The notes below the pieces were generated by a model. The model was not told the origin of the DNA, made no database searches, and saw only the letters and a program-made list of their open reading frames with translations. A DNA stretch of 57,314 nt from Dehalococcoidia bacterium (GTDB lineage: Bacteria; Chloroflexota; Dehalococcoidia; Lucifugimonadales; Lucifugimonadaceae), in the NCBI GenBank assembly GCA_012270805.1, contig JAAXHR010000342.1, positions 1 to 57,314 of the forward strand, written 5' to 3'. Below, piece after piece: positions 13,657-16,600 of the stretch. A program made the position numbers and the translations under genes. Each line of letters starts with the position of its first letter. Within the stretch, counting starts at the first letter, position 1.

Positions 13657-16600
13657 CTAACTGACAACTGCGTGTCCGTTCTTCGATGCCTCTGGTAGCG
13701 CCCTCGGCTCTGGGAGGTTCGCAGCCTTCCTAGCCGATTTCACAACCGGCGCAACCGTACAGTTATGTGTTATAATACCATTCGCCTCAAATGTAAAATC
13801 TGGCGTCTGGAGATTATACACATGACCCGCAAAGCGTGTGATCGTAATGTTGACGATGCGGTCAAAGCCTACATCGCTGGTGGGAGTATCGACAATCTCA
13901 GTCGGGAATTCCATATTGGATACAAACGACTTCGCTCGACCATCGTAGAACGCGGCGTTCTCAGAACTCCTGCTGAGACTGAGAGGATTATTCGTGAACG
14001 GGCTACGGCGACTCGCCGCGCCCGAAAAGGTATTGACGAATCCGAAGTTGCCATGCTCTACGAGTCCGGCATGTCTGTTAATGCTATCGCCAAGCACTAC
14101 GGAACTAACAGGAACGTTATCGACGCTCGGCTTCGTGCCCAAGGAATAACACCCCGTGGACGCTCGGATGCCAACAAACTGCGATTGCAACACCCTGAAG
14201 TCAGAGGCAGGATCACCCGTAAGGCCCATCTTTCGCTCGGTGAGGGAGAGCTTGAACTCCGCCAACTGCTCGAAGACTCCGGTCTGTCGTTGGTTCCACA
14301 GTACATCGTCGGGGAATACAACATCGACATGGCCTCGCCGCCCATCGCCGTGGAACTGCATAACAGAGCCACGAACCCTGTGAGCCGCACCGCCTACAAG
14401 GGGCGAGAGCGACAGCGTATCGTAGACCTGACTAATCGGGGTTGGCATATCATCTACGTCTGGACGCGAAAGCGGCGTAAAGAAGTCATTACCCCTGCTG
14501 CTGTGCGCGACGTTATCTCCTTTGCTCAGTCGGCCAAGCCCAACCCATCCGGTATCGGTCAGTATCGGGTGATTCGGGGTTCCGGCGAGCTTATAGCCGC
14601 TGGATGTGGTGATCTCGACTAAATCCCCTTCGTACCATCGCCGCGTTACCGCCTCAATGCCGGATGCCCGTACAAACGTCTCCCCAGGCACGCATCGGCA
14701 ATTTATGGTGTTCTTTGCACTGCCTCCGACACCTGGGGCGTCGAGTAGTTCACCGCCGACGATGAACTTCGACTCAAACGGCACGACCTGACGATGTGCA
14801 GCAAGGTGATCGGGACGTGTTGTCCTTTCGTCCAGCGTAGCGATCCATCGCTTTTCCTCGACAACGCCCGATTGACGGTACGCTTCGAGGTGTCCTTGAT
14901 TCGCTGCCCCTAGAATCTCGGTACGTGCTATACGCTCACTTCGCACAGTATCGTTGAAAGCAAAGACATTTTCAACCCTCCGCTGCAGATCAGGTATAGA
15001 TTCCTCAGCGGCTAGACCCTGGGCCATCTCATTTACGATCATTCGGGCCGTCTCATCGTTGACCCGCCTAGCCCAAAAGTCGGTACGATCCTTCACCCAC
15101 TCGTCAATCTCCGGCGCGTCGGTGTCAATTCCACCGAGTCCGAATTCATCTGAGTGGTCCCGCCCTTCGGTAATCAGCATTGTCGCTATTAGGCGTTCAC
15201 CTGAATCCTTGAACGTCTCTAGCCAGTCGGCAGGGTGGAAAAGTGGGGAAGACGGCCCCTGACGGTGTACGGCATGTGGAATTTCACCTTCCCATACAAC
15301 TTCTGTGATTCCCTTTGGAACCATGTCGTTCAGCCTGCGAATCACATCTCTGCGTTGACGCTCGAATAGGCGGCGTTGCATTGCAGAGAATCCGGTTACA
15401 CCAGCGTCGTAGCGATCCGAGAACGCCTTAGCTACCGCGTCAAGGTCAGGCTGAGGCAGAGCCTTGTAACGACGTTCTTCGTCCTCACCGAACGCGGCCT
15501 CTGACGATTCGACCTCGATAGTAGCGTCCTCGACCGGAGTGACGACACCCTTCGCCCACCAGACATCACCCCACGCCACAGGCTCTAGGTTGCGCTTAGC
15601 GCGGACTTCGTTGATCGTCAGGACTCCAGAGTCAATATCGGCACGATCACGCTCGTATAGCTCTGTCATGGCCTCCTGGAGCGGTAGAATCTGCGATGTG
15701 TCGAACGTCACGAAGATGTCCGACCGTCCTCGACCGCCAGAGACTAGCGGGATGAATAGTTCGTTGATTTCCTCAGATATGAACGACCATTCCGGCTCGA
15801 TAGTACCGGTGTAGAACCATACCCGTGATTCCTTCAGGTTGTTGAACGTAGATTGCACCATCGACATCATGAGCGGGACTGGTACGCCCCACACACGGGC
15901 CGCGTCCTCTACCGTCCATTCGAGTGTCTTCAGGAATTCCATGTCCCGCTGTGTCAGACCGATGTTCTTCGGTTCTCCAGCGGTCCCGTCCCACAACATC
16001 GGCTTATGAGCGTTCACAGCACCGCCATGACGCTTATCTAATCGCTTGTAGAATTCCTTTGCCTGTTCATCTGACAAGGCGTGATTCGTAACGAAGACCA
16101 GCGTCGAGGGCATAGCCCCGTTAACGAAGAACCGGTTATTGTACATCGTCGCGTTGCGACCCATGTCCAGCGTTGCCCTTGCCGGTGCGACCGGTGACAG
16201 ACCGGCTAGTTCCGACAGAGGATTGAATCGACGGAACCACACAACCTCATCTGTCGTCAGAGAAACTTTCATCGTTCCGGCATGGTACTCGTATCCAACG
16301 ATGTAATCGGAGTTCTGGAAGTCTTGTACATCGTTGACCTTCCCTCCGATTATCTTCACACGGTCGGGACGGAGCGGCCATATTGTCTTCGGGATGCCAG
16401 TAAGCGATCCCTCACGGTCGAGAAACCAAAATGCTGATCCGTAGAGACACAGATACGTTTCAAGTGACTCCAGTAGATCACCGGCAGACCAGAACGGATT
16501 AACGCGATTGAGTAGTTCTTGAACGGGATGATTGTCTTCGACGGGTTCGGGATCGCCATCGGTGCGACGACGCATCACCTGAAGCGGAGCGGAGCGAACG

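Follow-up and report, generated by a model that had tools for sequence, protein, structure and literature searches.

The stretch of DNA considered here, contig JAAXHR010000342.1 (57,314 nucleotides, the whole of which is called the window below), contains a minus-strand phage gene for a portal-MuF fusion protein. The MuF part of this gene very probably carries a mobile intein whose VSR-like homing endonuclease is of the antisense type, being encoded in a -1 open reading frame (ORF) on the opposite strand of the intein DNA. Homologues of the plus-strand ORF, at 25-50% identity, are present in all 175 related loci, where they lie antisense to the intein, are codon-aligned with it and leave both frames open. 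Sequence comparisons support the plus ORF as the conserved frame and as a real gene, whose predicted product combines helix-turn-helix (HTH) units with a Vsr/DUF559-like nuclease.

The intein and its antisense gene

The precursor is encoded by the minus-strand ORF at 13657-16875 (1072 codons), within which the intein lies. Two Pfam domains describe the host protein, Phage_portal (PF04860, E 4e-65) and Phage_Mu_F (PF04233, E 2.6e-12, ending at residue 729), and the ORF also matches the portal family phrog_2662 with an E value of 1.7e-95. Intein_splicing (PF14890) is found in the same ORF at 38.6 bits, above its curated cutoff of 35.8. The intein itself occupies 311 codons at 13762-14694 on the minus strand, from C1 to H310-N311, and its translation and boundaries, which were compared in 80 loci, are those of a class-1-type intein with a predicted Hint domain. 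It begins with CVPGETFV, continues with block B (T39-P-N-H42) and block F (G-H291-V-Y-N-L-Q-T) and ends in G-I-I-T-H310-N311. Residues C1, N41, H42, P43, T46, G49, H291, V292, N294 and N311 are invariant in 47 homologues, and T39 of block B is kept in at least 90% of them. The +1 residue, at 13759-13761, is a Cys, as it is in nearly all of the 80 loci. The MuF end motif is interrupted as NTINCR/C (the slash marks the junction), which leaves a C-extein of 34 codons plus stop at 13657-13761 (minus strand; CTVAPVVK...). Splicing would restore NCRC-TVAP and so complete the MuF motif NCRC-x3-P, and the corresponding homologous junction reads HN/CRCxxxPV.

The Hint N-terminal core with blocks A and B lies at 14512-14694 (minus strand, residues 1-61), and the end of the plus ORF runs over its residues 26-61. 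The C-terminal part with blocks F and G, at 13762-13881 (residues 272-311), has the conserved GHVYNLQT...NGIITHN. Between the two, the minus frame stays open at 13882-14511 over residues 62-271, a filler segment that evolves as the mirror of the endonuclease gene and is predicted to be disordered from residue 130 onward. An AlphaFold2 model built from 47 sequences, with pLDDT scores (predicted values of the local distance difference test) taken as means of 10-residue blocks, gives a confident Hint fold at residues 1 to ~105 and 272-311. These scores are 91-98 over residues 1-61, above 80 over most of residues 1-100 with a dip to 69 at 71-80, and 82-98 over 271-311, with β-strands at 275-310. 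Residues 130-271 remain below 50 nearly throughout and have almost no secondary structure apart from a short helix at 140-146. The intein-frame middle matches no Pfam endonuclease family and is predicted to be structureless filler, and the confidence at residues 62-126 may come from mirrored conservation.

On the plus strand the frame is open from 13765 to 14622, and its codons coincide with those of the minus strand (the '-1' antisense frame), with ATG 13765 opposite the CAT codon of His310. An internal ATG at 13822 stands 9 nt past a GGAG, and the likely translated ORF is 13822-14622 (266 codons plus TAA) because homologues start where His291 is mirrored. The preliminary description of this DNA, made from its letters alone, had spoken of an 858-nt dual-coding stretch. 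This holds for the open frame from ATG 13765, but the part likely to be translated is only 13822-14622. The coordinates, reading frames, codon alignment and NCR/C split given there were all borne out by translation, and its suggestion that codons complementary to stops are depleted in the plus frame proved significant. These codons, TTA, CTA and TCA, make up 3.15% of the 12,684 codons in the 34 other long ORFs of the window, and from this usage the probability of meeting none in 285 codons is 1.1e-4. When the plus protein was synonymously resampled 20,000 times, the minus frame was open 0 times, and the longest codon-aligned antisense open run in other genes of the window is 169 codons. The GC content of the window is only ~52%, so the inflation of ORFs seen at high GC is not applicable. 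The window also holds 10 tRNA genes in total, among them minus-strand genes for Leu(taa) at 1798-1874, Leu(tag) at 9165-9242 and Ser(tga) at 8589-8674. These phage tRNAs indicate that TTA, CTA and TCA are in use in this genome; that they decode the very codons excluded from the dual-coding stretch is probably a coincidence.

Conservation of the antisense frame and its product

A tblastn search with the 266-residue plus product matched 94 phage records at 25-32% identity, with E values down to 7e-24. The hosts of these phages include Gordonia, Mycobacterium, Salmonella, Escherichia, Cronobacter, Vibrio, Aggregatibacter/Haemophilus and Idiomarinaceae. The annotated feature beneath the match was a MuF, minor-head, head-morphogenesis or other structural gene in 40 of 40 cases among the matches listed, and the match ran antisense to the annotated gene in all 11 phage records inspected. 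Four metagenomic contigs have the same antisense arrangement. With the endonuclease alignment as seed, a scan of IMG/VR confirmed 111 loci, and 80 of them were retained; throughout the endonuclease-selected set (95/95) the codon-aligned minus frame is open over the whole match, and the other two minus frames never are. A second IMG/VR scan, seeded with the intein alignment, confirmed at least 534 relatives, and all 80 loci kept from it contain an antisense ORF that is homologous to the endonuclease and at least 200 codons long. A broken endonuclease frame was seen in none of these 80 intein-selected loci and in none of the 175 overall, a set biased to full-length similarity.

Only 7-11 called endonuclease homologues were returned by a word-indexed search of 5.8 billion protein clusters, compared with more than 500 IMG/VR loci, which indicates that the antisense gene is systematically missed by gene callers. 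The homologues that were called are located on short contigs or run antisense to a gene left uncalled or split by the gene caller; in one locus (L015) the antisense gene was called and the host gene was broken by the caller. No free-standing relatives of the endonuclease were evident among these few called homologues.

The overlap is partitioned: in any one segment, selection acts mainly on a single frame, and the dominant frame changes at about residue 230 of the endonuclease (residue 62 of the intein). With the central 175 codons (13885-14409) as query, the plus translation matched 11 of 11 phage homologues over 110-167 residues with E values of 1e-8 to 1e-17, while the minus translation gave only short, weak matches around the mirror of the nuclease motif (plus IAVELH, minus MQFHGD). 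Among 85 distinct loci, mean pairwise amino acid identity in the mid-region is 0.28 for the plus frame vs 0.17 for the minus frame, an order that is reversed over block B, and the least conserved plus codon position in the mid-region is the third. Substitutions were also counted in 17 phylogenetically independent close pairs, whose nucleotide identity is 65-93%. Between endonuclease residues 11 and 230 (intein 62-281), 41-59% of differing codons are non-synonymous in the plus frame vs 71-88% in the minus frame. The proportions over endonuclease residues 231-266 (intein 26-61) are 70-80% for plus vs 49-57% for minus.

The last ~36 codons of the plus ORF (14515-14622), which include GQYRVIRGSGEL (the mirror of KLAGTPNHPILT) and end in ...NPSGIGQYRVIRGSGELIAAGCGDLD, mirror Hint block B and its surroundings, and their sequence is evidently dictated by the intein frame. 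AlphaFold predicts a confident β-hairpin for these codons in the endonuclease frame, but the confidence may be spurious, brought about by mirrored conservation in the alignment. Endonuclease residues 171-230 (intein 62-121) had been considered as a dual-functional stretch on the basis of similar conservation at codon positions 1 and 3 and of moderate AlphaFold confidence in both frames. Since the close-pair counts favour the plus frame, this was dropped, and with it the idea of a large stretch coding for two folded domains at the same time.

The antisense gene (13822-14622, plus strand) is predicted to encode two HTH units followed by a Vsr/DUF559-like core. An AlphaFold2 model of the product, built from a 12-sequence alignment, has a mean pLDDT of 83. 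It places three-helix units at residues ~7-43 (HTH-1, 13840-13950) and ~73-106 (HTH-2, 14038-14139), with connecting helices that link them, and an alpha/beta nuclease core at residues ~143-238 (14248-14535) made up of strands at 158-181 and 209-215 and helices at 191-205 and 225-238. The top Foldseek match in the PDB is the catalytic domain of I-Bth0305I (3R3P; probability 1.0, target TM-score 0.60), and the DUF559 protein 3HRL is matched with a TM-score of 0.73 at 3.3 Å. A profile search of PDB sequences recovered 3HRL (E 1.6e-4) together with resolvase- and transposase-type HTH domains. This HMMER search retrieved 3HRL and very weak Vsr matches only and did not retrieve 3R3P, and the link to the EDxHD family therefore rests on fold and motif spacing. 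PF18741 (REase_MTES_1575) matches 8 of the 12 family members at E <0.01 and DUF559 matches one, while HTH_7, HTH_23 and HTH_28 are matched in 5-6 of the 12. In the 12-sequence alignment, E143, N167, D169, A176, E178 and G207 are invariant and Y166, V177 and R199 nearly so, and mean plus-frame identity reaches 0.50 over residues 161-183.

Every testable part of what the preliminary description had proposed for the two products agrees with these results. The 175 loci open in both frames are in line with its suggestion that selection maintains both, and no homologue with a disrupted plus ORF, of the kind it had considered, was found. The alignment of homologous inteins for which it had called finds the plus frame conserved over endonuclease residues 11-230 and the intein frame only over the splicing blocks. 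Its two HTH motifs are recovered by both the model and the profile matches, its Vsr/DUF559-like assignment by the 3R3P and 3HRL folds, the 3HRL profile match and PF18741, and its failure to see LAGLIDADG or HNH patterns in the intein frame is matched by Pfam, in which the minus-frame insert resembles no known endonuclease.

Mobility, expression and competing explanations

The insertion point is NCR/C in the window and in two related loci (L012 and L096), while in most relatives, including L014 and L016, it is HPN/CRC, two codons upstream. NCRC is restored after splicing by both the NCR/C...HN/C of the window lineage and the HPN/C...HN/CRC of the relatives. This difference could be explained by shifted cleavage and repair by the endonuclease or, alternatively, by intein 'sliding' between the two Cys residues. 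Three or more MuF sites carry the unit of intein and antisense endonuclease, which is found in other exteins as well. Loci L015, P0012, L044 and L008/L030/L092 show it in a CmcI-type methyltransferase, in a uracil-DNA glycosylase, in a VG15-family protein and at a second site of MuF, further upstream. The methyltransferase (L015, 3454-5551) is split as IVE/C...HN/CGTFSGKS at its S-adenosylmethionine-binding motif. The presence of the same unit in different host proteins suggests extein switching. No intein-free close relative of the portal-MuF gene was found when the gene was compared by megablast with 50,697 phage records, which gave no match, and tblastn of the portal against the phage collection reached ~27% identity at best.

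Several signals that could serve expression of the endonuclease lie inside the splicing blocks. The Shine-Dalgarno sequence GGAG (13809-13812, plus strand), 9 nt before ATG 13822, is antisense to the block-F Leu-Gln codons CTC CAG. An extended -10-like box, TGTTATAAT (13768-13776, plus strand), lies 45 nt upstream of the same ATG, antisense to the block-G codons ATT ATA ACA of Ile307-Ile308-Thr309, and is a putative endonuclease promoter. The endonuclease start is opposite the block-F His in 68 of 78 loci, with CAT read as ATG in 55 and CAC as GTG in 13. The block-F Leu codon is CTC in 62 of 72 loci, its antisense GAG being part of GGAG or GAGG, and in 71 testable loci CTC was observed 61 times where the codon usage of each locus itself predicts 21.6 (P 4e-22). 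Among the 29 loci with Ile-Ile, the exact codons ATT-ATA occur in 20 vs 1.6 expected (P 4e-19), and an xCA codon supplies the TG extension in 18. At the same fixed site, TAnAAT is present in 40 of 108 loci vs 3.8 expected; 29 of these are perfect TATAAT, including in loci above 60% GC. The -10 box appears to be selected at the nucleotide level because flanking synonymous sites vary.

Taken together, these observations raise the possibility, to which we give somewhat less than an even chance, that the codons of blocks G and F are constrained as nucleotides to spell the -10 promoter, Shine-Dalgarno sequence and start codon of the endonuclease, so that the splicing domain and the gene are interlocked. 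The tentative scheme would have Ile-Ile-Thr/Ala/Ser (ATT-ATA-xCA) supply TGnTATAAT, Leu-Gln (CTC-CAR) supply GGAG, and His (CAT/CAC) supply ATG/GTG. If true, it would explain the unusual HVYNLQ and IIxHN blocks, why the -1 frame is universal and why every copy found has an intact endonuclease, and a host-type promoter within a late structural gene would drive antisense expression of the endonuclease.

In the proposed mechanism, the minus strand would be translated straight through the intein, and the Hint domain (residues 1 to ~61, possibly ~105, plus 272-311) would fold around a long disordered linker and excise itself. Excision would rejoin ...NTINCR to CTVAP... and yield a functional head-assembly protein. 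The other strand of the linker DNA, in codon alignment, would serve as the gene for a 266-residue, two-HTH Vsr/DUF559-like PD-(D/E)xK endonuclease, which presumably cuts intein-less MuF alleles at the conserved HPNCRC-coding site, so that repair copies the intein and endonuclease into the cut allele (homing). The endonuclease frame governs its own residues 11-230 and the Hint frame both ends; the plus frame lacks TTA, CTA and TCA because over endonuclease residues 11-230 the intein frame must only avoid stops. The start codon, the ribosome-binding site and probably an extended -10 promoter would be embedded in the splicing blocks.

A number of points weigh against this mechanism. What was observed or computed here comprises anatomy, conservation, frame-specific selection, predicted folds and codon bias at the signal sites, from which protein splicing, antisense transcription, translation of the plus ORF, DNA cleavage, homing and mobility are inferred. 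The loci were gathered by similarity to full-length elements, and decayed copies are therefore under-sampled. The Foldseek E values are marginal (1e-3), and the window protein falls below the PF18741 cutoff (23.2 vs 38.2 bits, E 7.5e-5), which makes it a distant relative of that family and not a curated member. No conserved candidate for the His of EDxHD (~17 residues after D169) or for its final Asp is seen in the alignment. The proposed promoter consists of an extended -10 alone, and a -10-like hexamer is present at the site in only ~40-50% of the family. A generic sigma-70 scan found no -35/-10 promoter upstream of 13822, and the P values from codon counts treat loci as independent despite their shared ancestry; for these two reasons the promoter is kept as a testable hypothesis. 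A terminator scan found no plus-strand terminator after 14622.

It is conceivable, although we consider it very improbable, that the plus ORF is no gene at all and that its open frame is an accident, a mirror produced by conservation of the intein frame and by composition around a functional intein centre. Codon-aligned antisense frames do tend to remain open, and the C-terminal 36 plus codons (GQYRVIRGSGEL...) mirror Hint block B and follow the intein frame in their evolution. Over 210 codons, however, most changes are silent in the plus frame and alter the residue in the minus frame, homologues are found through the plus translation that the minus translation misses, and the predicted products are an HTH protein with a nuclease in one frame and a disordered middle in the other. 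Antisense runs in the other genes of the window do not exceed 169 codons. There is slightly more room, though still very little, for the view that the gene is an intact-looking but inactive relic of the invasion of a mini-intein, the intein now being fixed, vertically inherited and late in its homing cycle. No intein-free close relative was detected at the DNA level in the phage collection, and inheritance looks vertical for some VSR inteins (bioRxiv 10.1101/2025.01.02.630785), as such a relic would predict. Purifying selection on the plus frame in recent pairs (65-93% nucleotide identity), the finding of an endonuclease-frame stop in none of 175 loci, and the maintained start-codon, ribosome-binding and -10 nucleotide signals all speak against such a relic.

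An unlikely but more serious alternative is that the plus protein is conserved and expressed but is no longer a homing nuclease, having been domesticated as a DNA-binding or regulatory protein, or that an antisense transcript modulates late portal-MuF expression. The best sequence-level matches are indeed to the HTH modules, the general-base His and final Asp of EDxHD are not obviously conserved, and several VSR-type inteins look vertically inherited (bioRxiv 10.1101/2025.01.02.630785). The most conserved part of the protein is nevertheless the nuclease core, with its invariant E143, N167, D169, A176, E178 and G207, and the presence of the unit in unrelated exteins and at several sites of MuF agrees with mobility and not with a regulator specific to one gene. 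A mobile intein with an antisense Vsr-like homing endonuclease is thus the reading that we prefer.

Elsewhere in the window, an ORF at 9621-11090 (minus strand) contains a TROVE (Ro60-like) domain (E 3.6e-22) and adjoins the tRNA clusters; an Rfam scan of the window found only tRNAs, with no Y-RNA-like family at threshold. A nicotinamide phosphoribosyltransferase (NAMPT) gene at 34844-36307 (plus strand) and a cytidylyltransferase-like/PfkB-kinase fusion at 4-1443 (minus strand) suggest a phage-encoded NAD salvage module.

Relation to known systems

The preliminary description had suggested that an intein whose endonuclease is encoded antisense to it was without known precedent, and in this it was mistaken. 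Gosselin, Arsenault and Gogarten (bioRxiv 10.1101/2025.01.02.630785) described 63 non-canonical actinophage inteins, including some with 'anti-sense VSR-like' endonucleases in minor capsid (MuF-like) proteins, and also reported an unstructured in-frame middle. Antisense LAGLIDADG endonucleases in inteins date back to 1998, being attributed to Gorbalenya 1998 and Gogarten 2002 in the citations of the same preprint. Its supplementary table lists Vivi2, Angelicage, Affeca, Fosterous, Malisha, ViaConlectus, Sampson, APunk and Sejanus as 'VSR -1 ORF', and these nine phages are the actinophage tblastn matches of the window endonuclease, with E values of 7e-24 to 6e-8. The window intein resembles them in its MuF/minor capsid extein, its class-1-type splicing domain, its antisense codon-aligned endonuclease with a Vsr-like core after a helical region, and its in-frame middle without recognisable structure. 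It differs in that its phage is uncharacterised, has ~52% GC and has no close relative in the phage collection, and in that the host protein is a portal-MuF fusion. Its insertion at NCR/C is also unlike that of Vivi2, ViaConlectus and most family members (N/CRC), and its ORF overlaps the Hint blocks at both ends, whereas such ORFs are described in the preprint as typically outside the splicing domain.

What is added to the published picture is incremental. The family is widespread outside actinophages, which goes unmentioned in the main text of the preprint; members occur in Salmonella Jerseyvirus-like, E. coli Kagunavirus, Vibrio, Aggregatibacter and Idiomarinaceae phages and in hundreds of IMG/VR contigs, and phage-genome papers note only 'an intein' in MuF-type genes of these non-actinophage members. 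The exceptionless -1 frame with both frames open, the sharp frame switch at about residue 230 and the embedded signals are likewise modest extensions, as are the overlap of the ORF with splicing blocks at both ends, the variable insertion site and the other exteins. The promoter, ribosome-binding and start-codon signals have no mention in the main text of the preprint. The element provides a long case of antisense dual coding, 267 codons in length, that allows the selection on either strand to be followed by segment, and an example of the merging of a free-standing endonuclease gene with a mini-intein, which is relevant to the 'splicing first' idea of how inteins arose. It also matters for phage annotation, which labels the genes concerned MuF, minor head or hypothetical, also in phages of Salmonella and E. 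coli that are under consideration for therapy. Vsr-like, HTH-guided nucleases, whose targets are long, could serve as reagents for genome engineering.

The definition of Vsr-like (EDxHD) homing endonucleases is due to Dassa et al. 2009 (PMC2677866) and Taylor et al. 2011 (PMC3239194), and in I-Bth0305I (PDB 3R3P) the motif consists of E170, D196, N208, H213 and D222. Like I-Bth0305I, the window protein is 266 residues long and has N-terminal tandem DNA-binding repeats of HTH character followed by a C-terminal Vsr-fold nuclease. The Glu...Asp spacing is 26 in both (E143-D169 in the window protein, E170-D196 in I-Bth0305I), and the extra conserved acidic residue E178 is at a position noted for the EDxHD family. 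The motif His and last Asp are not evident in the window protein, and EDxHD enzymes are encoded in group I introns or between the halves of split inteins, not antisense within a contiguous intein. The DUF559/REase_MTES_1575 proteins (PF04480, PF18741; NGO0050, PDB 3HRL) share the core fold and the motifs D...(V/I)E...R...L...G(W/F), but are small stand-alone bacterial proteins without HTH modules.

In its coding arrangement, the window element shares a principle with the antisense or out-of-frame LAGLIDADG inteins, such as those of Synechocystis and other cyanobacterial dnaX genes, where the endonuclease is also read in a frame other than that of the intein. Phillips et al. (bioRxiv 10.64898/2026.09.14.751524) describe the dnaX endonuclease as an out-of-frame '+2 ORF', and frame-specific selection with a constrained alternative frame is seen there as it is here. 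The nuclease family, which is Vsr-like in the window, and the host gene both differ, but the proposed origin is the same for the two systems, a free-standing endonuclease gene that secondarily invaded a mini-intein.

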